From positions 173,140-237,139 of the forward strand of contig CAWJWQ010000011.1 in NCBI GenBank assembly GCA_963846615.1: a stretch of 64,000 nt of DNA. Direction: 5' to 3'. Origin of the DNA: an uncultured Actinomycetota bacterium (GTDB taxonomy: Bacteria; Actinomycetota; Actinomycetes; Actinomycetales; Microbacteriaceae). The notes below the pieces were generated by a model. The model was given only the letters and a program-made list of their open reading frames with translations, was not told the DNA's origin and searched no databases. How positions within the stretch are numbered: position 1 is the stretch's first letter; the number at the start of each line of letters is the position of its first letter. Below, piece by piece: positions 32,979 to 59,884 of this stretch. Position numbers and translations under genes: made by a program.

Positions 32979-33046
32979 GAAGCGAGACTACCGGGTGTAC
33001 AGCCTTGTCTGTCCCCACAAGTGGGAGGGGTGATAAGTCCTCAGGG

Positions 33047-33082
33047 GGGTTCCCGAGGGGGTGAGAGCGCGGGTTAATGGAG
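33047..33082. promoter_or_regulatory. GGGTTAA-family array R1: three 12-bp-phased units (GGGTTCCCGAGG, GGGTGAGAGCGC, GGGTTAATGGAG)
   Basis: GGGT starts fall at 33047, 33059 and 33071. The array sits between the divergent chorismate mutase (start 32978) and LuxR (start 33183) genes. Confidence 0.5.
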
Positions 33083-35723: not shown

Positions 35724-35729
35724 CCGCGA

Positions 35730-38376: not shown

Positions 38377-38452
38377 GCGGGGGGAGGACAGGTGTCTTCA
38401 GGCTAGAGAATCCGGGCCTTCTCCGACCCCGGAGGTTGCGGTGAACGCCTCA

Positions 38453-38486
38453 GGGTTGTTCGGGGTTAAGGGACGGGTTAAGGGAC
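38453..38486. promoter_or_regulatory. GGGTTAA-family array R2: GGGTTGTTCG followed by the exact tandem GGGTTAAGGGAC x2
   Basis: The exact 12-bp direct repeat lies at 38463-38474 and 38475-38486. The TTAA at 38478 supplies the TAA stop of the flippase gene. The array is 90-130 nt upstream of the Wzz/BY-kinase start. Confidence 0.55.
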
Positions 38487-39768: not shown

Positions 39769-39777
39769 GGCGTCATC

Positions 39778-40647
39778 TCAGCCCGCCGGGCATGCTCGAG
39801 CGCTCGGGAAAGCCTGCGCGGCGAGCTCGAGCACGTCGCGCAGCATCGCCGCGCGCACCTGGGCGCCGAACAGGGAATGGTCTCCGAAGGGGTAGTCGGT
39901 GACCCGCAGATCGGCACCGCGACGACGCAGCCGCTCGACGGCGCCGGGGCCGCGGTGGTGGGCGAAGTTCTCGGTGTCATCCGGCGTGAGCATCAGTGCG
40001 ACGACGGTGCCGGGACGCCGGGTCGCCGGCTCGAGCAGCGTCTGCGGGTCGTGGAAGAGCTGGAGCCGCGCGGCGACGCGCCAGACCCAGCCGGGGGTGC
40101 GTTCGCGGATCCGCGCCTTCAGTTCGCGGAACGGCATCCGACCCTCGATGTCCTGCCGGGTGAGTTCGGCGTACCCGTCGGCGGGCAGCCCGTGCAGCTT
40201 GAAGTACGTGGGACTGAGCAGGACGGTGAGCCGGGTCGGCCGGAGATCGGCGATGCGGGCAGCCACCCAGGCGCCGGAGCACAGCCCGACGTGGGCGATC
40301 GGGACGTCGGCCGCCAACTCGCCCACCAGCGCATCGACGTCGTCGATCCACGCCTCCGCGAAGATCAGGTTCGGTTCACCCACCCGCACCGGCGTGCTGT
40401 CGCCGGTGATGCGCCGGTCGAACCGGATCGCGCGGATGCCCCGGGCCGCCAGCTCACGCGCCGCGACGACCTGGAAGCGGCCGGGCCCGACGCGGTGCTC
40501 GGCGGCCCCGGGCTGCAGCACGACCACACCCGCCTCGGCGTCTGCCTCGTGGTGGTCTTCGCGCACGCTCTCGATCGCGAACAGGCGCTCGGGGCCGAAG
40601 CGCAGCAGCCGCTCCACGACGGCCACGCCGTCGGGCGCCGTCGCCAC
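39778..40647 (-). CDS. Alpha/beta-hydrolase-fold module 2 (nucleophile elbow GLCSG). It may be fused to module 1.
   Basis: Text reads GVVVLQPGAAEHRVGPGRFQVVAARELAARGIRAIRFDRRITGDS and IAHVGLCSGAWVAARIA. The 289-aa frame is intact and paralogous to module 1. Confidence 0.7.
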   Translation of the reverse strand: MATAPDGVAVVERLLRFGPERLFAIESVREDHHEADAEAGVVVLQPGAAEHRVGPGRFQVVAARELAARGIRAIRFDRRITGDSTPVRVGEPNLIFAEAWIDDVDALVGELAADVPIAHVGLCSGAWVAARIADLRPTRLTVLLSPTYFKLHGLPADGYAELTRQDIEGRMPFRELKARIRERTPGWVWRVAARLQLFHDPQTLLEPATRRPGTVVALMLTPDDTENFAHHRGPGAVERLRRRGADLRVTDYPFGDHSLFGAQVRAAMLRDVLELAAQAFPSARACPAG

Positions 40648-40649
40648 CC

Positions 40650-41449
40650 GGGCCTCCGCGCTGGATCCGCGGCCGGACGATCGTCCGTGCCAGCGGCATC
40701 CTGCGATCGACCCACTCGACGATCTCGCGGACGGCGCCGGCCGGAAGCACCGCGAGGGCGCTCGGCGCCTCGATCCACTCCGCGTGCCCGTCGAGCGGAG
40801 AGACCGTCGATCCGGCGGGCAGCGCGGCGGCGAACCGGGTCACCGCAGGTGCGTCGAGCTCGGCCCGGCGGACGAGGGCGAGGGTGTCGAGGGCGATGGG
40901 CGTGATCTCGACGCCTTCGAGCCACGCGATGGAGTCGGGATGAAGGGCGAGCGACAGCAGCGTGAGCCGCTCGGGGTCGGTGGCCTCCTCGCCGACCGTC
41001 AGGTCGAAGAGCGACTTCTGCCGACGGAGGAACCGGTGTCCCGACAGCGCCGGATCCCACAGCACCAGGCCGTCGAGGTCCGGGATGCGGCGCGCGGCCT
41101 CGGCGGCGAGGAGCGCCCCAGCCGCAAGGCCCGCGAGCACGATGCGCTCCACCCCCGCGGATCGGAGGGCGGTGACCGCCTGCTCGATCGTCGCCAGCCA
41201 GAGCTTCGCCGCATCCGGGACCGCCGTGTCGCCGCTGGCATCACCCTCGCCGACGTAGTCGAAGCGCAGCGATGCGATGCCGCGGGCCTCGAGCTCCTGG
41301 CTGAGCAGCCGCAGCCCGCGATAGCCGAGCACCTGCTCGTAGCCGAGCGGCGGACAGATCACGACACCGCCGCGGGCACCGCCGTCCGGCACGTGCAGGA
41401 ACCCGAGGCTCGGAGCGTCCGGGTCGCCGAACCAGGTGTCGTGCATCAT
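40650..41449 (-). CDS. Alpha/beta-hydrolase-fold module 1 (elbow reads GLAAG). No stop is found before module 2.
   Basis: Text reads MMHDTWFGDPDAPSLGFLHVPDGGARGGVVICPPLGYEQVLGYRGLRLLSQELEARGIASLRFDYVGEGDS and ERIVLAGLAAGALLAAEAA. A GGAAAGG RBS precedes the start. Confidence 0.65.
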
Positions 41450-41472
41450 CTCGGGGTCAGCGCCTTTCCGTG

Positions 41473-42418
41473 TTACAGGCCGAGGCGGGCGCGCACGCCG
41501 ACGGGCCAGCCGTCGACATCGAGACCGTGAGTGCGAAGCAGCGCGAGCGTGGTGCGCTCCATGCCGAAGGCGAGGCAGGCGGCGTGGGCGACATCGCCGT
41601 CGGCGGTGCGGATGCCGAAAGCCGCGGTGAGGTGGTCGCGCTGGCAGTTGGCGCTCGCGATCGCGGTGCCCTCGGCGAGGTCTCCGTACATCGGGACGAC
41701 GATCTCGATCTTGAGGTTCTCGCGCAGCTGGGCGCTGATCAGCATCTTGCCCGCGCGCCCGAAGAACGGGTCGTTGGCGGCCACGGCGTCGACCGGCAGG
41801 CCGAGCGACCTGCAGCGTCTCGATCGCGTTGTCCAGCCAGGTATCGCGGTACTCCTGCGCGCCGTCCGGGTCGCCGACGTACACGAACTCGTGCATCCGG
41901 AACGACTGCATGCGCATCGGATCGAGCGACGGCTCGTGGCGGAAGCCGTAGCCGAAGATGTCGAAGACGCCACCGCCCTCGGGGAGCCGTCCCTCCAGGG
42001 TGGCGTAGAGCGGGTGGCAGATCGCGTTGGTGAGCACGATCTCGCTGGGGTCGAGCCAGCCGTCCCAGGCGCTCGCCCTGCTCGCGCGCCGCGAGGAGCT
42101 GCGCGGTGCTCGCGGTCGCCGCGCTCGAAGCTGGAGACGATGCCGCTCAGGTCGGGGAACGAGGCGATGTAGTCGGTGCGCTCGAAGTCCGCGCGCGGGT
42201 ACACCGGCGGGAAGCGCAGCGCGGTCGCGCCGAGCGGCTCGGCCATCTCGACCAGCACGCGGTCGAGGCCGGTGAGGATCGCCTCGAACGTCGCGGAGCG
42301 CCCGTAGATGCCGGGCACGGACGTGCCGATCAGGAGCCCGGCGTCGAGCAGGTCGGACGCGGAACTCCAGGCGTGCGCGGTCGAGCGGGCTCAGTTCCGT
42401 TTCGAGGATGTCTGTCAT
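41473..42418 (-). CDS. Class II aminoacyl-tRNA-synthetase-like amino acid:[carrier protein] ligase (catalytic core only). At least four frame breaks.
   Basis: Text reads SVPGIYGRSATFEAILTGLDRVLVEMAEPLGATALRFPPVYPRADFERTDYIASFPDL, VLTNAICHPLY, FDIFGYGFRHEPSLDPMRMQSFRMHEFVYVG (motif 2-like) and HAACLAFGMERTTLALL (motif 3-like). The gene encodes about 315 aa and leaves no room for a tRNA-binding domain. Confidence 0.8.
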
Positions 42419-42672
42419 GCCGTCTGTCCTTCCAGGGTCAGCTGCTCCACCGCATCCCGGATCGTCGCCACGGAGGAGAAGGTCTGCTTCGTCAGCAGGT
42501 CGTCGGGGAACTCGACGTCGAAGGCGTCCTCGAGGGCGAGCATCACGTTGACGCTCGCGTGCGAGGTCATGCCGGCCGAGTACAGGTCGTCCACCTCGGG
42601 GAGGCCGGCGGCGGGCGCGCGCAGTTTGGCGTGCGCGTCGAGCACGGCCCGGATGCGGTCGTCGGTGGTCAT
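42415..42672 (-). CDS. Acyl/aminoacyl carrier protein (85 aa)
   Basis: Text reads MTTDDRIRAVLDAHAKLRAPAAGLPEVDDLYSAGMTSHASVNVMLALEDAFDVEFPDDLLTKQTFSSVATIRDAVEQL. There are ATGA overlaps on both sides. Confidence 0.8.
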   Translation of the reverse strand: MTTDDRIRAVLDAHAKLRAPAAGLPEVDDLYSAGMTSHASVNVMLALEDAFDVEFPDDLLTKQTFSSVATIRDAVEQLTLEGQTA

Positions 42673-43124
42673 GCCGTCGCCCCCTGCCGCGATGGCGAGC
42701 TGCGGTTCGGCCGGGATCGCGGCGGCGACCGCCATCGCGATGCCGCCGTCGTGGCTGAGGGAGATGTCGATGCGCGTCGATGCCCTGCCGCTCGGCGATC
42801 GCCTGCGCGGTCGCCGGTCAGCACGACACGGGGACGCCGTTGCGACCGGTGCGTACCTCGATCGACTGCCACGGCACGGCCGCCGTGCTCGGCACCCGCA
42901 GCACCTTGAGCACCGCCTCCTTGGCGGCGAACCGCCCGGCGAGGCGTTCGAGCGCCATCGGCCCCGCGGTCTGCTTTCGCTCGACGCGGGGTGAACACGC
43001 GCGCGAGGTAGCGCTCGCCGAAGAGCTCGATGCTCTCGGCGATCTCGGAGATCGGGTGGACGTCGCAGCCGATCCGGATGCGCGGGGCATGTCTCGGCGC
43101 GGCGCGCTCGGGGGTGCGCTGCAT
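42669..43124 (-). CDS. 4'-phosphopantetheinyl transferase (AcpS-like). Frame breaks.
   Basis: Text reads IRIGCDVHPISEIAESIELFGERYLARVFTP, LAGRFAAKEAVLKVL, WQSIEVRTGRNGVP and ISLSHDGGIAMAVA. Confidence 0.75.
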   Translation of the reverse strand: MQRTPERAAPRHAPRIRIGCDVHPISEIAESIELFGERYLARVFTPRRAKADRGADGARTPRRAVRRQGGGAQGAAGAEHGGRAVAVDRGTHRSQRRPRVVLTGDRAGDRRAAGHRRASTSPSATTAASRWRSPPRSRPNRSSPSRQGATA

Positions 43125-43221
43125 GGGGAGTCCTTCGGCGGACGCGACGGGGGGAACGCACGTCCGTACTCAACCTAGGGACGGGGCGCCGCCACGTCGC
43201 CGGGGAGGCCGACCGAAGCGG

Positions 43222-43246
43222 GGGATTAACCGGGGGGTTAACGCGG
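43222..43246. promoter_or_regulatory. GGGTTAA-family array R3: GGGATTAACCGG followed by GGGGTTAACGCGG
   Basis: TTAA lies at 43226 and 43238, exactly 12 bp apart. The array sits in the divergent gap between the PPTase operon (start 43124) and the GT2 gene (start 43267). Confidence 0.5.
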
Positions 43247-43266: not shown

Positions 43267-44155
43267 GTGCCCCGGCTGAGCGTCCTCATCCCCGCGCGTA
43301 ACGCCGCCGGCACGATCGGAGTCCGCTCTCCGCTCGACCCTGCGCGATCTGCCCGACGACGCCGAGATCCTGGTCCTCGACGATGCGTCGAGCGATGGCA
43401 CGGCCGAGCTCGTCCGCCGTATCGGCGATCGACGCATCCAGCTCACCGTCGCCCCTGAGAATCTCGGGGTCGCCCGCGCGCTGGCCCAGCTGCTCGATCA
43501 GGCGGAAGGCGACCTGGTAGCCCGGATGGACGCCGACGACGTCTGCCTGCCCGGCCGGTTCCGCGCCCAGCTCGCGCGCCGATCGAGCGCGGCGCCGACC
43601 TGGTCTTCTCCACGTTCCAGGTCATCGGCGCCGGGCTGCGGCTGCCGGCGCTGCCCGTACCCTTCGGGCCAGAGGCCGGTCGGCTCGCCCTGCTGCTCGA
43701 CTGCCCCTACCCGCATTCCACGGCTCTCGCTCGACGCAGCGCCCTCGTCGACGCCGGCGGCTACCGGATCGTCCGTCGCCGAGGACTACGACCTCTGGTT
43801 GCGCGCCGCCGCCGTCGGGCGCCCGCATCGTGCGGCTCGGCCGCGCCCGGCATCCTGCTGCGGGTCAGCGCCGGGCAGCTCACCGCCGATCCCGGATACC
43901 GGGTCGCGGCTCGCCGCCGATCCGCTCGTCGCCGAGTCCTACCGGGCTCTTGCGCACGAGCTGTGGGGCGTCGACGAGACGCCGTGGCTGCGGGAGCTGG
44001 CGTTTCTTCGCCAGGGACCGCTGAGCCCCGTTGGGAAGAGTCTTCTCGAGCCGTTCATCCATCGCTTCGTCACCTCACTCCGCGATCTCGGCGCGCTGGA
44101 GCGCTGGTACCTGACGCGTCGTGCCCGGCAGGAGCTCGGGCTGCGCGCTCGCTGA
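43267..44155 (+). CDS. Family 2 glycosyltransferase. Several frame breaks.
   Basis: Text reads MPRLSVLIPARNAAGTI. The shifted frame gives AEILVLDDASSDGTAELV and DLVARMDADDVCLPGRF. Later text reads VAEDYDLWLRAA. Confidence 0.8.
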
Positions 44156-44222
44156 CGAGCGGGCTCGGCAGGCCGCGCCGGAAGCACGGCGGGCACGAGG
44201 CACGCCGCGAGCCCGACCCAGA

Positions 44223-45473
44223 TCAGCGGCATCGACAGGTCGGGCACCGCGATGATCGCCCGACACCAGGATGCCGAGCAGCGCCCAGCCGGCCGGCACC
44301 GATGCGGGGCTGCGCTGCGCTGCGGCGACGCAGCGCGACGACGACGAGGGCGACCAGCAGGATCGTGCCGACGAGCCCGAGGCAGCTGAGCACGAGGAAG
44401 AACAGGCTCGACGGCCGGTGGCTGCCGAGCCCGACGCCGAGGCCGACGGTCTCGAGGAAGATCTCCCACGAGCGCTCGTTGGCGAGACCTCGGGCGAGGT
44501 AGCTGAACGACGACGCCTTGCGTTCCACCGACCCGATCGTCAGCTCGTAGAGGGCGGGCAGCTGCGTGATGCCGGCCGCGAGAGCCGCGGTGCCGAGCAC
44601 GACCATGACCGGGCTGATGCCGAACCGCGGCGAGCGCAGCTGGCGCACGAGCAGCACCGCGGCGCCCACCGCCGTCACGATGACGAGTCCGAGGAGCGCG
44701 GTGCCCGACGCGTTCGCGACGAACTCGATCCCGACGAGGACGAGGGCGACCACCGCAGCGAGACGGGCGCGCGGCGCGGCGCCGGGCCGGAACAGGCGCA
44801 CCCCGAAGTAGCAGGCCGCCGCGACGATGTAGAGGCCGAGCACCGACGGCTCGTAGAAGGTGCCCGAGAGCCGTTCGGGCGTCGCGTACGAGTAGCCGGG
44901 CATGTTCTGCAGGAGCGCGTGCGGCCACACCGGCTCTGCGACCAGCCGCACCGCCGCCAGCACGAGCGCCACCCAGAGCGCGCTGCCGAGCAGTCGGCGT
45001 GTCGACCGGGAACCGATCGCCCGGCGAGCAGCACGAAGAGCACGCCGAGGGTGAGGTATCCGAGCTGCGCGATGTTGCCGAGCGAGGGCTCGAGGAGCGC
45101 CATGTTGCCGACCTGGCCGTCGACGCCGAGCGCCGGGTCGAAGACGCGCGTTCCGGCGAAGATCCGCGGGCCGGCGATCGTGATGACCGCGGCCCAGACG
45201 ACGAGCGCGACCGCGAGCACGTCGCCGACGGAACCGCGCCGAGCCCGACCGGTCACGCACCGGGCGCGCGACCGCGATCAGCAGCCCCGGCACGCTCAGC
45301 ACCGCGAGCACGACGACCGCCAGGTAGAACAGCGGGAATCCGTTGTCGTCGACGACGAGCCCGGCGGTCTGCGGGAACGCGACGGTTGCGCCGACGACGA
45401 GCTGGGTCGAGCGGCGGTGCACGAGCCAGACGCCCACGACCGCGATGACGGTGACGATGCCGAGGAGGGTCAT
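44223..45473 (-). CDS. Wzy/O-antigen-ligase-like polysaccharide polymerase. Frame breaks. The true 3' end is uncertain and may extend to about 44100.
   Basis: The protein is multi-pass. Text reads MTLLGIVTVIAVVGVWLV, LGNIAQLGYLTLGVLFVLLAG, SGTFYEPSVLGLYIVAAACYFGV, ASGTALLGLVIVTAVGAAVLL and SWEIFLETVGLGVGLGSHRPSSLFFLVLSCLGLVG. Confidence 0.65.
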   Translation of the reverse strand: MTLLGIVTVIAVVGVWLVHRRSTQLVVGATVAFPQTAGLVVDDNGFPLFYLAVVVLAVLSVPGLLIAVARPVRDRSGSARFRRRRARGRARRLGRGHHDRRPADLRRNARLRPGARRRRPGRQHGAPRALARQHRAARIPHPRRALRAARRAIGSRSTRRLLGSALWVALVLAAVRLVAEPVWPHALLQNMPGYSYATPERLSGTFYEPSVLGLYIVAAACYFGVRLFRPGAAPRARLAAVVALVLVGIEFVANASGTALLGLVIVTAVGAAVLLVRQLRSPRFGISPVMVVLGTAALAAGITQLPALYELTIGSVERKASSFSYLARGLANERSWEIFLETVGLGVGLGSHRPSSLFFLVLSCLGLVGTILLVALVVVALRRRSAAQPRIGAGRLGAARHPGVGRSSRCPTCRCR

Positions 45474-45955
45474 CGGCCGGCCCGCTTCTTCTCAGGCGAA
45501 CGCAGCCCCTCCCGCTCGCGCAGGCCGACCCGCCGGGCCGGGATGCCGGCCCAGATCTCGTAGGGGCCGGTCGACTCGCGCAGCACCGCATTGGCGCCGA
45601 CGATGGTGCCCTCGGCGATGACGAGCTCCTGACCGGAGGCGAACAGCACCTTCGCGCCCGCGCCGACGGTCACGTCGTCACCGATGACGACGCGGCCGCC
45701 GAGGTGGGCGACCTGCTCCGGCGGGATCCAGGAGTCGGCGCGCCCGATGACGACGCCGGGCATCAGGATGACGTCGCGGCCGATCCGGGTCGAGCGGTGG
45801 ACGACGAGACCGACGGCGCCGTGGGCGAGCTCGAGCGGGCCCTCCCACTCGACCTCGCGCGGGAACTCGACGCCGAGGGCCTTCAGGGCGAGGTATGCGG
45901 CGCGCCCCACGATGCGCGAGCGCGTGGCCCGCAGCAGGCGGTCCTGGACGCTCAT
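45470..45955 (-). CDS. Hexapeptide-repeat (left-handed beta-helix) acetyltransferase. Intact.
   Basis: Text reads IGRDVILMPGVVIGRAD and GGRVVIGDDVTVGAGAKVLFASGQELVIAEGTIVGANAVL. ATGA overlap with the GT4 gene. Confidence 0.8.
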   Translation of the reverse strand: MSVQDRLLRATRSRIVGRAAYLALKALGVEFPREVEWEGPLELAHGAVGLVVHRSTRIGRDVILMPGVVIGRADSWIPPEQVAHLGGRVVIGDDVTVGAGAKVLFASGQELVIAEGTIVGANAVLRESTGPYEIWAGIPARRVGLREREGLRSPEKKRAGR

Positions 45956-47130
45956 GCGCGCACCCTCGCGAGCTCGTCGTACAGCCTCAGCACGCGCTCG
46001 CCGTGCACGTCGAAGTCGAGATCGCGGGCGCGCTCCCGTGCGCCCGCCGCGAGGCGGGATCGCAGGGCGGGATCGAGCAGGCGCGACATGCCCGCGCGGA
46101 TGGCCGCGGCATCCGGGGCCACCAGCACGCCGTTCGCCTCGGGCTCGACGACCGGCGGAGCGGCGACGGTCGTGCTGAGGATCGGCAGCCCGGCGAGCAC
46201 GCCCTCGGCCGCGGCGAGCGGGAAGTTCTCGGGCCAGATCGACGGGATGACGAGCACGCCGGCCGCGGCCAGCGCCGTCCGACGTGCCGTCTCGTCGAGC
46301 CAGCCGAGCTTGCGCACGCGTCCTGCCGCGGCGGCCGCGTCGACGGCGGGCTCCATCGGCCCGGAGCCGGCGATCCAGAGCTCGGCGCCGGGAAGCCCGT
46401 CGCCCCACGCCTCGAGCAGCAGCCCGACGCCCTTCGTGTCGAGCAGCTTGCCGAGGAACAGGAACACGACCGGGTCCGCGGCGCGGGTCGGGCGCGCGCC
46501 CGCGCCGCGACGGACGCGGCGCCCAGCCGCCAGCCGTGCGGCAGCACGGTCGTGCGCTCCGGCAGCGGCAGCCCCCACCGCGCGTGCTTGTCGCGCAGCC
46601 GCGCGTTCGGGAACACCAGGTGCGCCGCTCCGACCGTGCGGCTCACCACCGCCGTGCGCAGGCGCTGCACGAGCGGCGGCCGCGCGGCCTCGACGCCCCG
46701 GCGCAGCAGGGTCGAGCTGGTGTCGACGAGGGCGTAGTCGTGCACGGTGACGATGACGGGCGCGGGCGACGAGGCGAGCAGCGCGGAACCGAATCCGGCG
46801 ACGCGGTGCACGTGCACGAGGTCGAAGCCCGGCGAGCGCGCGGCGCACGGCGGTCGGGGTGCGGATGCTGCCCAGCAGGTCGAGCGCGTGGAACAGCACG
46901 GCCGCCGGACGCGATCCCTTGCGATCGGGCGGGTACGGCCGGCGGCTGCGCACGACGCGGACCGCGATGCCCTCGCCGGCGAGCTGCCCGGCGAGTCCGG
47001 GCGAGATCCAGCCGGTCACGATCGTGACCTCGTGCCCGTGATCGCGCAGCCAGCGGCTGAGCTCGAGGCAGTACTGCTCCGCCCCGCCCAGCGGCGCCAG
47101 CAACGAGCTCACGAACTGCGCGATCTTCAC
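45952..47130 (-). CDS. GT4-family glycosyltransferase (a). Frame breaks.
   Basis: Text reads VKIAQFVSSLLAPLGGAEQYCLELSRWLRDHGHEVTIVTG, HVHRVAGFG, VFLFLGKLLDTKGVGLLLEAW and VLVIPSIWPENFPLAAAEGVLAGLPIL. Confidence 0.8.
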   Translation of the reverse strand: MKIAQFVSSLLAPLGGAEQYCLELSRWLRDHGHEVTIVTGWISPGLAGQLAGEGIAVRVVRSRRPYPPDRKGSRPAAVLFHALDLLGSIRTPTAVRRALAGLRPRARAPRRRIRFRAARLVARARHRHRARLRPRRHQLDPAAPGRRGRAAAARAAPAHGGGEPHGRSGAPGVPERAAARQARAVGAAAAGAHDRAAARLAAGRRVRRGAGARPTRAADPVVFLFLGKLLDTKGVGLLLEAWGDGLPGAELWIAGSGPMEPAVDAAAAAGRVRKLGWLDETARRTALAAAGVLVIPSIWPENFPLAAAEGVLAGLPILSTTVAAPPVVEPEANGVLVAPDAAAIRAGMSRLLDPALRSRLAAGARERARDLDFDVHGERVLRLYDELARVRA

Positions 47131-48232
47131 GGCAGGCTCGGCTCCTGTCGCGGCCTCCGACGCGAACCGGCACGCGGGGCGTCGATCGCGAGGCCGAGCA
47201 GGATGGCGGCGGTGCGGTCCCACGAGAAGCGCTCGACGTTGCGGTGCCCGTGCGAGATGAGGCGGCGGCGCTCCGCCGGCGACGAAGCTCGCGCACGCGC
47301 GCGACCGCATCCTGCGGGCCGCAGCGGGTCGAAGTACAGGGCGCCCTCGCCGGCGACCTCGGGGATCGAGGCGCGCGTCCGACGCGATCACCGGGCAGCC
47401 GAGCGCCTGCGCCTCGACCAGCGGCAGGCCGAAGCCCTCGTAGAGCGACGGGAAGACGAGGGCGCGCGCGTTCCGCAGCAGCAGCGCGAGCTCGCCGTCG
47501 CTGAGCCGACCGGCGAGATGGATGCCGGGGGCGTCGAGCGCGCGACTCGTCGCGCGAACACGCGGCGGGCTCCGGCCGCGCCGACGACGACGACCGGGAT
47601 GCCGGCCTCGGCGAGCGCGCGGGTGACCGGGCCGAGGTTCTTGCTCGGCGTGAGGTTGCCGACGCAGAGCACGTAGTCGTCGGCGCGTGCGCGCCGCCAG
47701 CTCGGTGCCGAGGGTGAGCTCGGCGCGCGTCGGCGCGCGCCTCGAACGCGTGCTCGTGCCCGTTCGGCGCGAGGGCGAAGCGCGCCGGAGTCGACGCCGA
47801 GCACGTCGGCGAGCTCGCCGCGGCTGAACTCCGACACCGTCGCCAGGTGACGGGCGCGCCGTGCGAGCACCCGGTACAGCACCGAGTACCAGAGCACGAA
47901 GCGCCGCGAGAAGGTGCGGGGGAAGCGCGCCGGCGTCACGTCGTGCATCACGACGAGCTGGTCGCGCTTCAGCGATCGGCGCCGGTCCGGCGAGGTTGAG
48001 CAGCATCGCGCCGCGGGCGCGCCACGGCAGCGCGAGCTGCTCGAACGCGATGCCGCGCGAGCCGGGACCGCAGCACGCGCGCCGGCGGGAAGCCAGTCCG
48101 GCAGCGACCGCGTCGCGCGGGACGACGACACGCGCCGCCGGGATCGAGGTCGAGCACGCGTCGTGCGACCTCGCCCGCGTAGCGCTGCATGCCGCTCGCC
48201 TGCGCGCTCAGCCACTTGCCGTTGATCAGCAC
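47127..48232 (-). CDS. GT4-family glycosyltransferase (b). Many frame breaks.
   Basis: Text reads LINGKWLSAQASGMQRYAGEVARRVL, LVVMHDVTPARFPRTFSRRFVLWYSVLYRVLARRARHLATVSEFSRGELA, DYVLCVGNLTPSKN and ALVFPSLYEGFGLPLVEAQALGCPVIAS. GTGA overlap with GT4 (a). Confidence 0.8.
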
Positions 48233-49350
48233 CGGCTGTCGGCCGCCACCGCGGTAGCCGGCTCGAGGGTCGCGCTGCCTGGCGTTCGGCGTGTTCCCGC
48301 CAGGACGCCGCTGCCAGGCGGCGAGGTTCGCGCTGCCGGGCGGCCTCGCCGCCGCGCAGCAGCTCCTCGGCGGCGGCCGCCATCTCCTCGGGCGTCGTGA
48401 TGCCGGGGGTCGCGGTCGCACCGGCCATGCGTCGGCACCTCGCGGGCGATCACCGGGACGCCGAGCTCGATCGCCTCGAGGATCGACGACCGGGAAGCCC
48501 TCCCAGCGCGCGGTGTGCAGGTAGACGCCCGCCTGCGCCGAGCGCGCGGTGCGCGTCGAACGACGACAGCCAGCCGCGTGACCGGGATGCCGGCGCGCTC
48601 GAGGCCGCACCGCGCGATCCGGTCGTCGCCGTCGCCGATCCAGCGGGCGTCGAGGTCGGGGCGGCCGTTGCGGCGCAGGTGCAGCACGGCGGCGCGGAAG
48701 AAGTCGGGGTCCTTCTGCGCGCCGATGCGCCCGACCGCGACGACCCGGTTCGGGTCGCGGTGCTCGAGCATCGCGAGCGCGGGGACGCGGGCGACGTTCG
48801 GCACGTGGATGACGCGCGCCGACGCCGCGTGCCAGCTGCGGCGATGCCGGTGCGCGCCTCCCCGGGCGAGCAGGCGGCGATCGTGTCGGTGTTGCGGGCG
48901 AGCAGCGCGCTCGGCGAGCGCGGATCGCGAGCCGGACGCGCCGGCGACAGGTCGCGGCGCTCGAACGCGAAGCAGTGCGGGCTGTAGACGAGTCGGCGGT
49001 CGGGGCGGCGTGCGCAGCGCGGTGCGCACGAAGAATCCGGCGTACGACGAGTGCGCGTGCACGACGTCGGGCTCGCACGGCCACGACACCGCGGCGGATC
49101 GCGCGGCGCGCGGCGCGCGGTCCCGCGGGCAGCACGCCGACGCTCGCGAAGCCCTGCTCGTCCTCGGCGGCGAACTCCGACGCGGCGGACGCCGCGCAGC
49201 AGGTGGTGTTCGATGCTCGGGGGTCGCGGCGACGAACTGCAGCACGGCGGCGCGCACTCCGGCGCCCCAGCTCTCGACGACGTGCAGCACGACCACCCGG
49301 TCGCCCGGACCAGTCGGAGCGCCGCCCTCGTGCGCTGTCGACACGGTCAT
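48226..49350 (-). CDS. GT4-family glycosyltransferase (c). Many frame breaks.
   Basis: Text reads MTVSTAHEGGAPTGPGDRVVVLHVVESWGAGV, VVHAHSSYAGFFVR, VAVGRIGAQKDPDFF and YLHTARWEGFP followed by ILEAIELGVPVIA. Confidence 0.7.
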   Translation of the reverse strand: MTVSTAHEGGAPTGPGDRVVVLHVVESWGAGVRAAVLQFVAATPEHRTPPAARRPPRRSSPPRTSRASRASACCPRDRAPRAARSAAVSWPCEPDVVHAHSSYAGFFVRTALRTPPRPPTRLQPALLRVRAPRPVAGASGSRSALAERAARPQHRHDRRLLARGGAHRHRRSWHAASARVIHVPNVARVPALAMLEHRDPNRVVAVGRIGAQKDPDFFRAAVLHLRRNGRPDLDARWIGDGDDRIARCGLERAGIPVTRLAVVVRRAPRARRRRASTCTPRAGRASRSSILEAIELGVPVIAREVPTHGRCDRDPRHHDARGDGGRRRGAAARRRGRPAARTSPPGSGVLAGTRRTPGSATLEPATAVAADSRC

Positions 49351-50884
49351 CAGTAGGCCCCGTCCGCTCCGACGACGGCGCGCGCGGTGCGCAGCAGGAT
49401 GATGATGTCGTTCGTGATCGACCAGTTCTCGACGTAGTACAGGTCGAGCCGGATGCTGTCCTCCCACGACAGGTTCGACCGGCCGCTGACCTGCCACAGC
49501 CCGCTCATGCCGGGCTTCACGACGAGCCGGCGTCCGGCCTTCGAGTCGTAGAGCCGCACCTCGCCGTCGCGCTGCGGCCGCGGGCCGACCAGGCTCATGT
49601 CGCCCTTCAGCACGTTGAGCAGCTGAGGCAGCTCGTCGATCGAGTAGCGACGCAGGACACGGCCGACCGGCGTGACGCGCGGGTCGTCTTTGACCTTGAA
49701 CAGGGGCCGTATCGCCCGTGCCCTGCGCGGCCAGCAGCTCGGCCAGGTGGGCGTCGGCGTCCGTCACCATGCTGCGGAACTTGAGCATCGTGAACGGCTC
49801 GCCCGACAGCCCGATGCGCTCCTGGCCGTAGAACACCGGGCCGCGCGAGCTGAGCCTTGATCAGCACGGCGACGACGACGAAGAGCGGCGACGAGCACGA
49901 CCAGCAGCCCGATCGCGAACACCAGGTCGAACGCCCGCTTGGCGAAGCGCTTCGGCCCGTCGTACGACGGCGTCTCGACGTGGATGAGCGGCAGCCCGGC
50001 GACCGGCCGGGTGTGGATGCGCGAGCCGGCCACGCCGACCAGCTGCGGCGCGACGACCAGCTGCTGTCCCGGGATCGAGGCGCCAGCTCAGCTCGTTGAT
50101 GCGGCTCGACGACGCGTCGGACCCGACGACGATCACGGTGTCCGGGCTCGGGCCGCCAGGCAGCGAGCACCGCGGTGTTCGAGAGGTCGTCGGCCGCCGC
50201 GTACACCGGAACGTCGTCGATCGCCGTCGCCTGCGCGTCGTCGGTGACGACGACGGCGACGACCCGGTAGCCGGCATCGGTGCGCAGTCGCGAGCGAGTC
50301 GATCAGCTCGCGCACCGCGACGCGCGCTGCCGATCAGCAGCACGCGGAAGCGACAGCTCGCCGCGACGACGACGGGCGTGCAGCCAGCGCCGCCACGACC
50401 AGCGCGAGCCAGCAGCAGCAGCGTGCCGAGCGGGAACGCGGTGACCAGGTACCCGCGGGCGAAGTCGGTCTGGGTCATCGCGGCGAAGACCGCGATCGTG
50501 CCGAAGAGCAGCAGGGTCGCGTTGATGATGCGGCGGTACTCGGTCGAGTCGGTGCCCAGGATGCGGCTGTCGCGCGTTCCGGCGACGGCCAGCGCCAGCA
50601 TCCAGGCCACCACCAGCGCGATCGAGAACGTGACGTAGTCGACGCCGAAGTCGGTCGGCAGCGCGGTGCTGACGAACGACGTGGCTGAAGCCGAACCAGA
50701 GCGTGTGCGTGCTGGCGGTCGCGAACACGACGACCACGGCATCCGTCAGTGTCACGTACCGCTGGAAGCGCTTGACCCAGTCGGTGGCGTGCGCCCGCAC
50801 GCGCTGCACCGACCAGCCCTGGGCGCCGGAGAGCTGCCACGGGTAGCCGCGGTCGGCGGTGTGCGTCACGGGGGATGACTCCAC
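49350..50884 (-). CDS. Polyprenyl-phosphate sugar-1-phosphate transferase (WbaP/CpsE-like priming enzyme). Many frame breaks; start uncertain.
   Basis: Text reads FYGQERIGLSGEPFTMLKFRSMV and LKGDMSLVGPRPQRDGEVRLYDSKAGRRLVVKPGMSGLWQVSGRSNLSWEDSIRLDLYYVENWSITNDIIILLRTA. An N-terminal TM block reads YVTFSIALVVAWMLALAVAG. Confidence 0.85.
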
Positions 50885-51005
50885 TCACCCCACCGGCGAC
50901 ACTGAGAGAGACGCCGGTGGGGTCATCGGGTTTGCGGGGGAGATGCCGGGGGGATGCGGCACTGCCCACGTTAGGAACCCGGTGGCGCCCGCGTCCCCCA
51001 TCCGG

Positions 51006-51079
51006 GGGTCGGAAACGCGGGCTAACCCGTGAACACGGCCCAGGGGATGGGACGCGGGTTAAGCCGCGGGTTAAGCCCG
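51006..51079. promoter_or_regulatory. GGGTTAA-family array R4: degenerate phased units followed by the exact tandem CGCGGGTTAAGC x2
   Basis: GGGTC is at 51006, GGGCTAA at 51019 and GGGAT at 51044. The exact 12-bp repeat lies at 51054-51065 and 51066-51077. The TTAA at 51071 supplies the TAA stop of the GNAT gene. The array is about 175 nt upstream of the priming transferase ORF start. Confidence 0.55.
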
Positions 51080-51730
51080 CAGCCCGCTCGCGCTGCGGAA
51101 CAGCACCGGCCGGTCGCCGTACGCGGCGAGGCGGCGCCTCGAGCCCGGCCGCACGTCCGGCCACTCGTCGTCAAGGATCGAGAAGACGGCGGAGTCGCGC
51201 CACGAGCCGTCGGCGCGCAGCGCTCTCGCGGCGCACGATGCCCTCGAAGCTGCGCGCCGAGCTTCTCGATCGCGCGCGCGCGACCGCTCGTTGCGCGTCG
51301 TCGGCCTGCAGCTTCACCCGGCCGAACCCGCGCGCGAAGGCGAGCCCCAGCATCAGCAGCTTCGTCTCGGGGTTCACCTGCGTGCCCCAGACGCGCGGGT
51401 CGTAGCCGGTCCAGCCGATGTGGGCGTGCTCGCGCTTCCTCGTCGAGGTCGCCGAGCGTCGACGCGCCGACGATCTCGCCGTCGTGGGGACCGCCGACCA
51501 GCCGCACGACGTAGCGATGCGGTTGGCGCCGGCGTCGTACGCGATCGACCCAGCGTCGAACGCCTCGCGATCGCGCGGCAGCCCGGCCGGACCGCCGCCG
51601 TAGCCGCCCGCGAACACCGCGGGATGCCCGAGCGCCGTCGCACAGGCCGGGGTAGTGCTCGGGCGTCATGCGGCTCGAGGCGCACGAAGCGCCCCTCGAG
51701 CACGGCGGGTTCGGGTCGCACGGCGGTCAT
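51071..51730 (-). CDS. GNAT-family (RimJ/RimL-like) N-acetyltransferase. Several frame breaks.
   Basis: Text reads MTAVRPEPAVLEGRFVRLEP, HAHIGWTGYDPRVWGTQVNPETKLLMLGLAFARGFGRVKLQ and DSAVFSILDDEWPDVRPG. Confidence 0.75.
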
Positions 51731-51781
51731 CGCTCCATCCTCGCATCCGTGCGCTGCGCCATTCCACGTACCGTGGCGGCC

Positions 51782-52424
51782 ATGAACCGAATCACCGGAC
51801 CGGGCTGGCGCCTCGCGGGGCGATCGCGGTCCTGGGTGCTCTTCACCTTCTGCTTCACGCTGCTCTACCAGGCGACGGCGGTCGTGTCCGGGCTCGGCGG
51901 CTTCTGCGCCAGCGGCGGCCCGTACGTCATCGAGACGGAGTGCCCCGACGTCGGTCATCTGGTCGTTCGCGCCGCTCAGCATCCTCGGCGGGTTCTCTCG
52001 CGGTCGCGATCGGCCTGTTCTTCGCCGCGCGGGTTCGCGGCGCCGCTCGTCGTCTGGGCGTGGCCGATCCTGTTCGTCGGCCTCGGCATCCAGTTCTCCA
52101 TCTCGGCATCCAGCCCGGCGGGTCGTCTTCGTCGGCTTCCTCGCGCGTCGCTGTTCGTCGCTCATGGGGCTCGCTCCGCTGATCTTCGAGCTGCGCGCCG
52201 GGCCGCGGCGCATCGTCCTCGGCAAGACGAACGTGCAGGGCGTGCGCTTCCGCGACCGGGAGGGGGCGCCGCGCACCTTCTACGCGTTCGGGCGGGACGA
52301 TCCGAGCGAGACCGTCCCGCCGACGCCCGGCGACTGGCTGCTCGGGCTCGTCATCTGGATCGGGTCGATCGCCGTCGGCGTCTGGCTCGGCGTCCACGCG
52401 TTCATCGCGGTGGCGGGCGCATGA
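51782..52424 (+). CDS. Uncharacterised multi-pass membrane protein, paralog A. Frame breaks.
   Basis: Text reads [57 protein letters not shown] and LIFELRAGPRRIVLGKTNVQGVRFRDREGAPRTFYAFGRDDPSETVPPTPGDWLLGLVIWIGSIAVGVWLG. Confidence 0.6.
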
Positions 52425-53085
52425 GCAGCCCGGGGGCCGGCATCATGACCCGCTTCGTCGTCGCCGCTCTGGCGGGTGCTCGGCTCGTTCGTGGGCTGGT
52501 TCGGCTTCACGTTCTGCTTCACGCTGCTGTACCTGGCAGCCGCCGTCGTGATGGGTCTCGGCGGATACTGCGCGTCCGGCGGCCCCTACGTCATCGAGAC
52601 CGAATGCCCGGATGCGGTGGTCGCCACGTCGCCGCTGTCGATCTTCGGCGGGCTCGGCGGCCGTCGCGCTCGGCGCGCTCTTCGCGCGCGGCTTCGGCAC
52701 CCCGCTGGTCTCGTGGGCGTGGCCGATCCTGTTCGTCGGACTCGGCGCCGCGTTCCTCATCGCGTCGACTCAGCCCGGCGGGATCACCTTCCTCATCGTC
52801 GGCGTGGTGTTCGTGGTGATGGGACTCGTCCCGCTGGTGCTCGAGGTGCGGGCGAGCATCCGGAACGTGCTCCTCGGGACGGTCAACGTCGCCGGGGTGA
52901 GGTTCGAGCTGACCGGGCGAGGCAGGCCGTCGCCCCTGCAGTTCGGCCGCTGGGACAGGTCCGGCTCCGACGAATCCGTCACCCCGACCGCCGGGGACTG
53001 GACCCTGGCGCTCGGGATCACCATCGTGGCGATCGGGCTCGGGATCTACCTCGCCGACCAGTTGTTCCGCGCCCTCGGCGGGTAG
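52421..53085 (+). CDS. Uncharacterised multi-pass membrane protein, paralog B. Two frame breaks.
   Basis: ATGA overlap with paralog A. Text reads [57 protein letters not shown] and [73 protein letters not shown]. Confidence 0.6.
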
Positions 53086-53106
53086 ACCCGGACCTCCCCC
53101 GGCGGC

Positions 53107-54394
53107 TCAGCCCAGCAGGTCGTGCCGCACGACGATCGCGTCGCGGCCCGGGCCGACGCCGATCGCCGAGATGCGCGAGCCGCTCATCGCCTCGAGCGCG
53201 AGCACGTAGTCCTGCGCGTTCTTCGGCAGGTCGTCGAACTCGCGGGCGCCGGTGATGTCCTCGGTCCAGCCGGGGAACTCCTCGTAGATCGGGGTCGCGT
53301 GGTGGAAGTCGGTCTGGTTCACCGGCACCTCGTCGAAGCGCACGCCGTCGACGTCGTAGGCGACGCAGACCGGGATGCGTCTCGAGACCGGTGAGCACGT
53401 CGAGCTTGGTGAGCACGAAGTCGGTGACGCCGTTGATGCGCGCCGAGTAGCGGGCGATCGGGGCGTCGTACCAGCCGGTGCGGCGCGGGCGGCCGGTCGT
53501 CGTGCCGAACTCGAAGCCGGCGGCCCGCAGGAACTCGCCCGACTCGTCGAACAGCTCGGTCGGGAACGGGCCGGAGCCGACGCGCGTCGTGTACGCCTTG
53601 ACGATCCCGATGACGCGGTCGAAGCGGTTCGGTGCGACGCCGGATCCGGTGGCGGCGCCCCCGCTCGTCGCGTTCGAGCTCGTGACGAACGGGTAGGTGC
53701 CGTGGTCGACGTCGAGCATCGTCGCCTGGCCGCCCTCGAACAGCACGGTCTTGCCGGCGTCCAGCGCCTGGTTCAGCACGAGGCCGGTGTCGGCGACCAT
53801 CGGCCGCAGCCGGTCGGCGTAGGAGAGCAGGTCGTCGACGACCTCGTCGACCTTGATCGCGCGGCGGTTGTAGACCTTCACCAGCAGGTGGTTCTTCTGG
53901 TCGAGGGCGCCCTCGACCTTCTGGCGCAGGATGTTCTCGTCGAACAGGTCCTGGATCCGGATGCCGACCCGGTTGATCTTGTCGGCGTACGCCGGGCCGA
54001 TGCCGCGGCCGGTCGTGCCGATCTGCCGCTTGCCGAGGAAGCGCTCGGTCACCTTGTCGAGCGTGCGGTGGTACTGGGTGATGACGTGCGCGTTCGCGCT
54101 GACGAGCAGGCGGGACACGTCGACGCCGCGGGCGGCGAGCGCGTTGAGCTCGTCGAACAGCACCTCGATGTCGACGACGACGCCGTTCGCGATGACCGGC
54201 ACGACGCCGGGGCTCAGGATGCCGGACGGCAGCAGGTGCAGCGCGTACTTCTCGTCGCCGATGACGACGGTGTGGCCGGCGTTGTTGCCGCCGTTGAACT
54301 TGACGACGTAGTCGACGCGGCTGCCGAGCAGGTCGGTCGCCTTGCCCTTGCCTTCGTCGCCCCACTGGGCGCCGATCAGAACGATGGCGGGCAT
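53107..54394 (-). CDS. purA: Adenylosuccinate synthase. One frame break near 53370.
   Basis: Text reads [71 protein letters not shown] and [11 protein letters not shown]. Confidence 0.95.
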
Positions 54395-57934: not shown

Positions 57935-59884
57935 TCAGGGCGTCGGCGTGGGCGTCGGCGCAGGCTCGGCGCCACCTGCGGAAGCGACGATGCTTCCCGT
58001 GATCAGCTCCCCCGACGACCGGGTCACGAAGCAGAAGTAGTCGCGTCCGCCCTCGCCCCACACCTGCTCGGTCGGGTAGCTCGCCTGCGACGACCGCGTC
58101 GGTGATCTTGCCCACGACCGCCGGGTCGAAGATGCCCGGGCCGCGGCAGAACGCGAGCGACCTGCGTCTGCAGCACCTCCTCGCCCGGATAGAGGTCGAC
58201 GCCCGGTGCCGGTCTCGGGGATCACACCACGGACGCACCATCTGCGCGGGGTGCGGGACGGCGCAGTCGACGACGGTGTAGGCCGTCCTGCCACGGGCTC
58301 TGGTACGGATCGAGGCACTCGCCGCCGAGCAGCTCGTCCCAGCGCGTACTCGCCGGGTGCGACCGGACCGAGCGGGATCGTGGGCGATGCCGACGGACTC
58401 GGCGTGCCGCTCGGGCCGGCGACGGTAGGTGACGGGCCGAGGAGGTCGGGCAGCCGCATCCCGACGAAGAAGAGCGCGACGAGCGCGAGGATCGCCAGAG
58501 CACCGCCCGAGGACGATCAGCAGGACGCGCTGCAGCCGCGAGATCGCCGGAGGCGGGCCTGGCGGAACGATCGGGCCGGCCGGATCGCCGGGACGGCGCC
58601 GCCGTTCGCGGCGGCCTCGGCCTGCCGCACGAACGGGTTCTGGCTCGGGTCGAGGCCCTCGGTGTACTCCCGGAACTGGCTCTCGCCGAACAGCGCATCG
58701 ATCGCCGAGACCTGCTCGTCGTCGCCGCCGAGGCCGAACGCGTCGGTCGTCGGCGCAGCGGGCTGCTCGCGGTCCGGTGCCCTGCGGGAACACCGACGTC
58801 GGCTGCGCCTGGGGGACCCGGGCGGGCGGATCGGGCTCCAGGTCGACGGCATCCATCATCTGCGTCGGTTCGGGCTCCCAGAACGGCGGGGCGTCGGCCG
58901 AATCGGGGGCGACGTCGGGCAGCACGGTGGTCTCGAACGGCATCGCGGATGCGGGAGGCTCGGCCTCGGCGCTCGGCCCGCCCTCGAACGCGGGATCGAG
59001 TGGCGCCGGCTCGTGTGCGACGGGACGGTAGAACGGGGCGGGTGGCGCGACGGGCGCGGGGGGCGTGGGCGCGGCTGCGGGGGGCTGGGCCGGAGGCTGG
59101 GCGGCGGAGGCTGGGCGGCGGGCGCGGGGGCCGGAGGCTGCGCGGGCGGGACGCCGGCGCGCGGCGGGAGGCGGGCGCCGGCGGAGCGACCGGTGCGCGG
59201 GTGACGGCGGGGCGCGGCGGAGTGGCGGCGCGGGGTGACCGGCGGCGGCCGCGGGCTGACGGGTGCGCCCGGGGTCAATCCCCAGGAGAAGCCGCCTGGC
59301 TCGGCAGGCGGCGGGGCGCAGGCGCGGCAGGCGGCGCAGCCGGGGGAGCCGTGGGCTGGGGCGGGTCGCTGGTGCGGCGGGCGGGAACGCGGGCTGCGCA
59401 GGCTGCGCCGGTGGCAGCGCGTTGACCCGGATCGAGCGGCGGGAACGGCGACGCAGGCGGCTGCGCGGATGGCAGGGGGCGCGGCTGCGGCGGAGCGGGA
59501 ATGCGGGCGCGGCGGCTGCGCCGGCGGCGCGACCGGCTGCGCGGCGGGCGCGACCGGCCGCTGCGGTGCCGCGGCGCCGGCGGCATCTGCGGTGGGAGCG
59601 GCGCCGCGGGCGGCTGCGGCTGGAGCGGGCGGCTGCGGCTGCAGCGGCGGCTGCGGCTGGAGCGGCGGCTGCGGCCGGAGCGGGCGGCTGTGCGGCCTGC
59701 GCGGGCGCAGCCGGCGGCGCAGCGGGCGCAGCGGCGCAGCGGGCGCCGCGGGCGCAGCCGGCTGAGCAGGCGCCGCCGGCTGCTCCGGCACCGCCTCCTG
59801 CTTCGGCAGCTCGCCGGTCGGGTCGAACTGCGAGGCGAGCCAGTCGGCCGCCTCCTGCTCGTCGTCCTGATCGCGATCGGTCAT
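57935..59884 (-). CDS. Septum-formation-domain-like protein with a very long Pro/Ala-rich repetitive N-terminal half. Frame breaks; the frame through the repeat is uncertain.
   Basis: Text reads MTDRDQDDEQEAADWLASQFDPTGELPKQEAVPEQPAAPAQPAAPAAPAA, TM LAILALVALFFVG, YTVVDCAVPHPAQMV and YPTEQVWGEGGRDYFCFVTRSSGELITGSIV. Confidence 0.6.
58950..59800. repeat. Degenerate GC-rich tandem repeats (GGCTGCGGC / GCGGCGG type units) encoding the Pro/Ala-rich region
   Basis: One example at about 59620-59690 reads ggctgcggctggagcgggcggctgcggctgcagcggcggctgcggctggagcggcggctgcggccggagcggg. Every reading frame in this stretch is open. Confidence 0.7.

Follow-up and report, generated by a model that had tools for sequence, protein, structure and literature searches.

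Why does the DNA analysed here, a stretch of 64,000 nt from an uncultured bacterium of the Microbacteriaceae (hereafter the window), carry an exact tandem of a 12-bp unit containing GGGTTAA between a GNAT gene and the long operon of the priming glycosyltransferase in a surface polysaccharide locus? An earlier note, made from the letters alone, had proposed a unit-boundary element at 51006-51079, at which transcription might terminate or restart. From the analyses described here we conclude, with a probability of roughly 55%, that in an upstream activator site of the priming-transferase operon the tandem (51056-51074) makes up the high-affinity part, that it is read by a P-loop-less MalT-like LuxR regulator encoded in the cluster, and that this regulator governs its own gene and the remaining operons of the locus as well. 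The reading builds on the motif and its enrichment, its conservation and fixed internal spacing, a quantised distance to -10-like hexamers, the co-occurrence with the regulator and the architecture of the latter. That this regulator is the binder of the boxes, that it activates rather than represses, and where transcription starts, we infer.

The exact repeat consists of two copies of CGCGGGTTAAGC (51053-51064 and 51065-51076) with an identity that spans 25 nt (51053-51077), and Tandem Repeats Finder (TRF) reports the same interval as a period-12 array (CGCGGGTTAAGC x2.08, 100% match). The tandem that the earlier note had described is real, but its coordinates (51054-51065 and 51066-51077) lie one base too far right for CGCGGGTTAAGC; the string found there is GCGGGTTAAGCC, which is likewise repeated exactly. 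The degenerate units that it had listed upstream, GGGTC (51006), GGGCTAA (51019) and GGGAT (51044), are all present, and their phasing is borne out by start-to-start steps of 13, 25, 12 and 12. GGGCTAA is kept in relatives as a third box and GGGTC belongs to an inverted repeat (C5/G5) that is conserved at the -35 region, while GGGAT shows no conservation in relatives.

Two-copy exact 12-mer tandems are not rare in the window (TRF lists others, e.g. at 26293), which speaks for a chance or neutral local 12-bp duplication without function. The significance of the tandem follows from the shared 7-mer, the fixed 5-nt spacing and the conservation in relatives. GGGTTAA occurs 6 times in the window, which has a GC content of 71%, compared to 0.28 expected occurrences, and none of 100 shuffles reached 6. 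All 6 copies are located on the plus strand and in intergenic regions, where they form four sites, which we refer to as A (33071), B (38463/38475), C (43235) and D (51056/51068); the second unit of site C is the variant GGATTAA at 43223. In 10 genomes the boxes are invariant, although the regulators are 52-100% identical and the intergenic sequence has otherwise diverged. Because these comparative data refute it, we consider a chance origin negligible, and both the shuffles and the conservation agree with the earlier view that the motif is not accidental.

Protein relatives place the window in the Microbacteriaceae, the nearest metagenome-assembled genomes (MAGs) being named Pseudolysinimonas, Rhodoglobus and Schumannella. 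A search with the stitched priming transferase returned 2 syntenic loci among 80, L054 with about 85% and L001 (a Rhodoglobus MAG) with about 73% nucleotide identity, and a further set (L201-L210) comprises contigs which encode homologues of the regulator at 52-85% identity. In L054 and L001 the tandem is present at the orthologous D and C sites, and the absence of the repeat from close relatives with the same genes, which the earlier note had named as evidence to the contrary, was not observed. L201-L210 share a layout with one GGGTTAATG(G/A) box upstream of the regulator gene, a tandem before the Wzz-like gene and a further tandem before each additional operon. Related Microbacteriaceae genomes of the Pseudolysinimonas/Rhodoglobus type, ten in number, keep the element at orthologous promoters.

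The loci of these relatives (217 kb) contain 39 boxes, all of which are located at the same three or four promoter regions, and 14 exact tandems with a 5-nt spacer (N5), but no tandem at any other spacing (0-39). For comparison, 78 other Microbacteriaceae polysaccharide loci (1.5 Mb) contain 23 scattered boxes, no N5 tandem and none at other spacings (0-39), and a regulator homologue was found in none of the 78. Even the tetranucleotide TTAA lies within boxes in 39 of its 54 occurrences in the relatives' loci. When the 14 tandems are aligned, 26 of 28 boxes read TTAACCC and the remaining 2 TTAATCC, and the spacer always has a length of 5 nt, whereas its sequence and the flanks are unconstrained. 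The boxes are asymmetric and non-palindromic; a palindrome of the form GGGTTAACCC was rejected, since only 1 of the 28 boxes is preceded by GGG. In diverged intergenic alignments the boxes, a TANNNT hexamer and the ribosome-binding site with the start codon are the sole invariant islands. Sites B, C and D always have two consensus boxes in the 10 genomes, the exception being L210_C with one consensus and one degenerate box, and with this steady copy number a variable-number tandem repeat or contingency locus was rejected.

Read in gene direction, the motif is TTAACCC-N5-TTAACCC, 12 bp from centre to centre, and between 31 and 51 kb every minus-strand transcription unit has it about 95-185 bp upstream of its start codon. 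The tandem marks the 5' boundary of transcription units and stands ahead of each minus-strand operon of the cluster, including the priming-transferase operon, for which this had been noticed before. We measured by script the distance from the promoter-proximal consensus box to a TANNNT hexamer at 20 sites in 10 genomes. The spacer was 44-45 nt at 5 sites, 56-57 nt at 10 sites, 69 nt at 2 sites and 82 nt at 3 sites, which include site D of the window, and all 5 sites with a spacer of 69 or 82 nt have a third, degenerate box at spacer 45 (TTAGCCC, TTAGTCC or CTACGCC). The conserved -10-like hexamers are TAACGT/TAGCGT, TAGGTT, TAGCCT/TAGTTT and similar. If the hexamer is the -10 element, then upstream of a weak -35 (GGGACG or TGGAC-like) each promoter would have a box with its centre near -61 or -73. 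The sequence of the interval between box and hexamer is poorly conserved, yet its length is kept, which suggests that a bound protein and RNA polymerase are spatially constrained relative to each other. The step of 12-13 bp between the distance classes corresponds to the box period and not to the helical repeat, which may hint at an in-register protein array, with few independent events behind the classes. Intergenic enrichment, conservation at orthologous promoters and a constrained position relative to the promoter are traits of operator sites, and the boxes have all three, which makes them a putative site of this kind.

At site D, where all elements are given on the minus strand, the distal box (TTAACCC, 51068..51074) has orthologous boxes in L054, L001, L202 and L203. 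It is followed after 5 nt by the proximal box (TTAACCC, 51056..51062), the end of which lies 82 nt upstream of the predicted -10 of the priming-transferase operon (TAACGT, 50968..50973), a TA(A/G)CGT island in five genomes. The third, degenerate box (TTAGCCC, 51019..51025) is located 45 nt upstream of this -10 and would be centred near -61; with an equal spacer it reads TTAGCCC in L054 and L203 and TTAGTCC in L001. A C5-N4-G5 inverted repeat (50995..51008), which overlaps the weak -35-like GGGACG (50992-50997), is a conserved island in the site D alignment, also in L202_D and L203_D. Transcription of the operon is predicted to start near 50961. Directly before the ribosome-binding site of the priming transferase, the 5' untranslated region contains a stem-loop, CCCCACCGGCG...CGCCGGTGGGG (50888..50922), in which 6 of 16 pairs show compensatory changes (five genomes) and which may have a role in controlling translation or the stability of the mRNA. 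The priming glycosyltransferase has its candidate start codons at 50867..50884 (minus strand); the open reading frame (ORF) opens with GTG at 50884, and GTG 50869 aligns with the ATG of L001.

Site C is located in the divergent region between the AcpS operon (minus strand) and the GT2 gene (plus strand), and its distal box TTAACCC (43235..43241) and proximal box TTAATCC (43223..43229), both on the minus strand, lie upstream of a conserved -10 TAGGTT (43172-43177), the proximal one by 45 nt. At site B, also on the minus strand, the distal box (38475..38481) contains the stop of the upstream flippase ORF (TTA 38478-38480), and the proximal box (38463..38469) is located 57 nt upstream of a conserved -10 TAGCCT (38400-38405), serving the Wzz/BY-kinase gene with its start at 38337. 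An inspection by eye of B and C for in-phase degenerate boxes between the pair and the -35 yielded only AACCC at a 10-bp offset in three genomes, which is unconvincing.

Site A consists of three boxes in 12-bp phase on the plus strand (33047..33077), namely GGGTTCC at 33047, GGGTGAG at 33059 and GGGTTAA at 33071, with the regulator gene about 105 nt downstream and the start of the divergent chorismate mutase gene at a distance of 93 nt. This three-box array is present in six genomes (including L201-L205), and L206 keeps only the GGGTTAATGG box. In L201 and L204 the left neighbour is a co-directional membrane-protein gene, and site A can therefore serve only the regulator gene there. Downstream of site A no -10 of the regulator's own could be assigned. 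An alternative reading starts from this site: GGGTTAA on the plus strand could be the -10-like element of a sigB/sigF-type alternative sigma factor, and site A the promoter GGTTCC-N17-GGGTTAAT driving the regulator gene. The sigB/sigF consensus, GTTT-N15-17-GGGTAT, may resemble this arrangement, GGTTCC is indeed found 17 nt upstream of GGGTTAAT at site A in seven genomes, and the gap between box and start codon in L203 is only 37 nt. However, we regard a sigma factor element as unlikely, since at sites B and D it would direct transcription, in antisense, into the 3' ends of the genes upstream (flippase, glycosyltransferase, GNAT or purA), and since two -10 elements 12 bp apart have no promoter role. 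Moreover, the middle unit GGGTGA of site A, which is needless for a -35/-10 pair, is also conserved, and the conserved TANNNT hexamers lie at fixed distances on the other side of the boxes.

The proposed box binder is an 846-aa regulator with a LuxR/GerE-type helix-turn-helix (HTH), which was assigned by frame analysis and Pfam (33183-35723, plus strand, ORF intact). It lies adjacent in every genome examined, and no other DNA-binding protein of the neighbourhood is conserved. By sequence searches, nothing but the C-terminal GerE HTH is detected (PF00196, residues 779-833, 50.9 bits vs a cut-off of 23.5, E=1.2e-13), which matches best to the C-terminus of MalT, followed by CsgD (5e-9), EpsA (1e-8), ComA and VpsT (1.8e-6), and matches in the PDB to ComA, VpsT and DosR fall on the HTH residues, with NarL matched as well. 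Among 22 homologues, extending down to 54% overall identity, the recognition helix NTVKAQLRSIYRKL does not vary, which matches the invariance of the boxes. A profile search revealed 61 close relatives and then a gap to the canonical MalT proteins and other large ATP-binding regulators of the LuxR family (LAL).

Beyond the HTH, BLASTP aligns the regulator to P0062, a protein with AAA_16, TPR_MalT and GerE domains, at 26% identity over about 600 aa, from the winged helix through the TPR sensor to the HTH (E=1e-12); Pfam TPR_MalT remains below its cut-off (12.9-18.5 bits vs 45). In an AlphaFold model (mean pLDDT 74), residues 1-390 are confident, and the top Foldseek match of the N-terminal part is the nucleotide-binding oligomerisation domain (NOD) of MalT (8bob_C, E=2e-7, 390 columns). 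ATPase folds of NLR, CED-4 and RuvB come next. TM-scores over the whole chain are low, which is to be expected of a model with several domains. The model and the alignments suggest an architecture of a MalT-like NOD fold, a winged helix, a TPR-like sensor and the C-terminal GerE/LuxR HTH. A Walker A motif ([GA]xxxxGK[ST]) is absent from 21 of 22 homologues, the sole match being located at residue 720 of P0049, far outside the NOD. The loop at the expected P-loop position, after the corresponding beta-strand, reads LPAAPADD and is acidic and variable among homologues, and Pfam gave no match to AAA_16 or AAA_22 in the regulator. As neither Walker A nor AAA_16/AAA_22 was found, the regulator is not a canonical LAL protein but a P-loop-less derivative.

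Conservation and position of the boxes do not in themselves identify the binder, and the link to the regulator is one of co-occurrence. The same data would fit a real upstream promoter element that is read by another factor, either an unlinked transcription factor or the C-terminal domain of the RNA polymerase alpha subunit, which could use TTAA, the only A/T-rich patch in these regions of a 71% GC genome, as UP-like subsites. We consider such a factor possible, though not probable. The CCC of the box is as invariant as the TTAA, and a reader of A/T tracts would not need it. In addition, within the neighbourhoods of about 20 kb that were compared the motif is confined to the regulator-bearing cluster, boxes precede the regulator gene in all genomes, and the neighbourhood contains no second conserved DNA-binding protein.

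With the MalT-like regulator as the reader, the locus might work as follows. A pair of asymmetric 7-bp recognition boxes would lie in the upstream region of the promoter of the priming-transferase/GT4/acetyltransferase/Wzy operon, the same pair precedes the Wzz/BY-kinase gene (38463/38475) and the AcpS-ACP-ligase-flippase operon (43223/43235), and a three-box version (33047-33077) precedes the regulator gene itself. The 846-aa regulator of the LuxR family would bind the boxes head-to-tail as an oligomer, with one box always ending 44-45 or 56-57 nt upstream of the -10, i.e. centred near -61 or -73, and would help RNA polymerase onto promoters with a good -10 (TANNNT) and a poor -35. The whole polysaccharide locus would be switched on together, and the regulator would also control its own gene.

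MalT itself reads asymmetric G-rich boxes including direct-repeat pairs, and it has several sites per promoter, for which oligomerisation is needed for cooperative binding (PMC7567727; PMC10427625); the consensus of the MalT box is GGGGA(T/G)GAGG with the core GGA(T/G)GA (PMC7567727). The system described here resembles that of MalT of E. coli and Klebsiella, which belongs to the LAL group and to the multi-domain ATPases of signal transduction known as STAND, in the short asymmetric G-rich box, the several copies per promoter and the direct-repeat pairs. The similarity extends to the large regulator with NOD, winged-helix domain, arm/TPR sensor and LuxR HTH, the window regulator being homologous to the MalT family with an N-terminal fold that best matches the MalT NOD, whereas cooperative binding as an oligomer is only proposed here. 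However, the box is GGGTTAA and not GGGGA(T/G)GAGG, and it does not qualify as a MalT box. The boxes are located at about -61/-73 and further upstream without overlapping the -35, the window regulator lacks Walker A, and the target is a polysaccharide locus in an actinobacterium.

Other systems share single traits. A 7-bp unit is also read by the GerE/LuxR-type HTH of NarL/NarP, DosR, ComA and GerE. The sites of these proteins are mostly inverted pairs (e.g. 7-2-7), whereas the pairs described here are strictly direct (7-5-7). VpsT, CsgD, EpsA and RcsA/RcsB are likewise GerE-HTH regulators associated with surface polysaccharide genes, but they are small proteins of the response-regulator or cyclic di-GMP types, which read other boxes and lack the MalT-like 770-aa N-terminal region. 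Actinobacterial cluster promoters of the SARP/OmpR type carry heptamer direct repeats upstream and are controlled by a cluster-situated activator, in some cases of the STAND type, e.g. AfsR. The heptamer direct repeats upstream of cluster promoters are a common trait with the locus described here, while the 11-bp period, the position abutting or overlapping the -35 and the winged-helix reader in place of a GerE HTH are not. JUMPstart/ops elements, which act in antitermination of the RfaH/LoaP type, are also short conserved elements before long polysaccharide operons; in contrast, they occur as a single copy in the transcribed leader and act on the elongating polymerase, whereas the boxes lie upstream of the predicted promoters. 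The ops sequence GGCGGTAG was not found in the 31-52 kb cluster, and its three matches in the window (5.5, 15.0 and 20.0 kb) do not exceed the count expected by chance.

We now turn to the stop codon and the hairpin, on which a signal at the RNA level or an operon boundary (a terminator, antiterminator or processing site) would depend. The plus-strand TTA at 51071-51073 in the right-hand box is indeed the TAA of the GNAT frame (...FRSASGLRA*), as the earlier note had recognised, but the connection drawn from it proves incidental in the light of L001, L209 and L210. In favour of an RNA-level signal, the distal box supplies the TAA stop of the upstream ORF at 7 of about 10 co-directional junctions, and the window copy folds with a z of -2.1. 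However, these seven cases descend from two ancestral junctions, one from the flippase to site B and the other from GNAT to site D. The comparison of orthologous junctions that had been proposed shows the boxes kept in L054, and also in L001, where purA takes the place of GNAT as the upstream gene. As the purA TAG of L001 ends 6 nt before the boxes and no GNAT is present, the element travels with the downstream operon and not with the stop codon. In L210 (6008-6091) and L209 (13654-13860), the upstream ORFs (flippase, Wzy) read in frame through both boxes and end in or beyond the next promoter, which is why gene callers over-extend these genes. In a genome with 71% GC, the box is simply the first stop-containing sequence that an ORF meets.

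The small hairpin GCGGG-TTAAG-CCCGC, which had been pointed out as a further feature, did not hold up: no other copy has its stem, spacer sequences vary without constraint from site to site, and other sites fold differently or not at all. Across eight box sites there is no common fold (z from +1.1 to -2.5, with differing pairings). No terminator-like site or T-run was detected between 50700 and 51300, and no Rfam family reached the gathering threshold in the window. Furthermore, the element is also located in a divergent region (site C) and has the opposite orientation at site A. We therefore abandon the idea of a unit-boundary, termination or restart signal, for which an RNA-level element would be a very unlikely basis; the sequence evidence points instead to a putative protein-binding upstream promoter element.

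The gene content between the box sites varies strongly, from one glycosyltransferase in L202/L203 to over 15 kb for the window. L208 (18580-18816) has another tandem pair, its second, directly behind purA, together with a remnant of the D-type leader hairpin, and no priming-transferase operon is present; evidently the D gene cassette was lost and its promoter left behind. Both observations would be in line with recombination or cassette-boundary sites, at which polysaccharide cassettes between purL and purA are gained and lost. Such a role is nevertheless highly improbable: the locus has no associated recombinase, a 5-nt spacer between direct 7-mers corresponds to no known core-site architecture, and the fixed distance to the -10 would have no explanation, whereas cassettes that carry their own regulated promoter give the same pattern.

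Several points weigh against an activator site read by the MalT-like regulator. The transcription starts are predicted from the conserved TANNNT hexamers, and an E. coli-type consensus promoter scan gave no match at the predicted -10. A step of 12-13 bp between the distance classes is not a helical repeat, so that a simple class I model with all proteins on the same face of the DNA does not fully explain it. The boxes of site A are opposite in orientation relative to the regulator gene, and in L203 their distance of 37 nt to the regulator start codon would suggest autorepression rather than activation. Many GerE-type HTH proteins bind inverted and not direct repeats. ATP-driven oligomerisation in the manner of MalT is not to be assumed, since Walker A is missing. 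Finally, the comparison covers neighbourhoods of about 20 kb around the loci.

A more specific version of the activator reading, which we put forward only tentatively and consider rather doubtful as a whole, is that the P-loop-less, MalT-derived STAND regulator assembles on DNA head-to-tail, with a register of 12-13 bp and two consensus heptamers as the nucleus, that promoters accept the box pair at discrete slots only (about -61, -73, -85 and -98), and that each cassette exchanged horizontally brings such a promoter along, by which surface glycan loci that vary between strains are connected to one switch. The element itself is an ordinary kind of gene switch that is not described for this bacterial lineage; we found no description of the motif or a regulon, and a literature search with the motif string returned only primers and unrelated sequences. 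Less usual are the strict 7-5-7 direct repeat with its quantised promoter distance and the STAND-derived regulator without a P-loop. If the activator reading is true, a complete and testable regulon would be at hand for a surface polysaccharide locus in poorly studied soil and freshwater Microbacteriaceae, with the cis-element, its rules (7-5-7 direct repeat, fixed -10 distances) and the probable trans-factor named. It would also mean that the promoter boxes common to all variable glycan cassettes keep these under joint regulation, and the boxes would explain the pile-up of TAA stops and over-long ORF calls at the junctions. How a MalT-like STAND protein that lacks the nucleotide-binding loop is switched on is the question that follows.

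Additional candidates were rejected. A pattern scan of metagenomes with CTTAACCCNNNNCTTAACCC gave 120 matches, nearly all of them eukaryote telomere-like CCCTAA arrays, and the two high-GC matches that were inspected (L134, L160) lie in unrelated proteobacterial contexts. In other genera (L037, L064, L079), the repeats of period 12 that lie upstream of priming transferases are coding sequence, namely GYGYGY tails of BY-kinases. For a G-quadruplex, only site B has the four G3 runs, and the sites of L202/L203 have just two.

The remaining genes were likewise assigned by frame analysis and Pfam. On the minus strand, chorismate mutase and an SDR gene extend leftwards from 32978, Wzz/BY-kinase leftwards from 38337, the operon of AcpS, ACP, a class-II-aaRS (aminoacyl-tRNA-synthetase)-like ligase, hydrolases and a flippase from 43124 to 38478, the priming transferase with GT4s, acetyltransferase and Wzy from 50884 to 44150, GNAT from about 51700 to 51071 (frameshifted in the window), and purA leftwards from 54394; on the plus strand, GT2 extends rightwards from a GTG start at 43267. 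The polysaccharide genes (window 44150-51700) contain many frameshifts, with some 27 over 5.2 kb and some 10 in the priming transferase, and GNAT and purA (53018-54394) are also broken, while the regulator ORF is unbroken and has an identical counterpart among database proteins. Real pseudogenes seem a less fitting explanation than a metagenome assembly whose consensus is poor where strains vary.

The operon at 38478-43124 places AcpS, ACP, the class-II aminoacyl-tRNA-synthetase-like ligase, alpha/beta hydrolases and a flippase inside a polysaccharide cluster, and in relatives an acyl-CoA-dehydrogenase-like gene replaces the ligase, which suggests that the glycan is decorated with acyl or aminoacyl groups in a carrier-protein-dependent manner. 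The sequence CTTGTCTGTCCCCACAAG (33004-33021), located between site A and the start of chorismate mutase (32978), is kept in L202, L203, L205 and L206 and is missing from L201 and L204, which do not have the chorismate mutase operon as left neighbour. Wzz/BY-kinase has a proline-rich C-terminal extension of about 400 aa (window 35644-36900), which ends in a conserved coiled-coil segment, and in L206 (4649-5629) this segment is a stand-alone ORF adjoining the regulator. Two paralogous membrane-protein genes lie between GNAT and purA (51668-53085, plus strand), and a homologue is located directly upstream of the regulator in L201 and L204. Lastly, the region 59000-59800 has a GC content of 78% and contains many overlapping degenerate tandem arrays with periods of 6-35.

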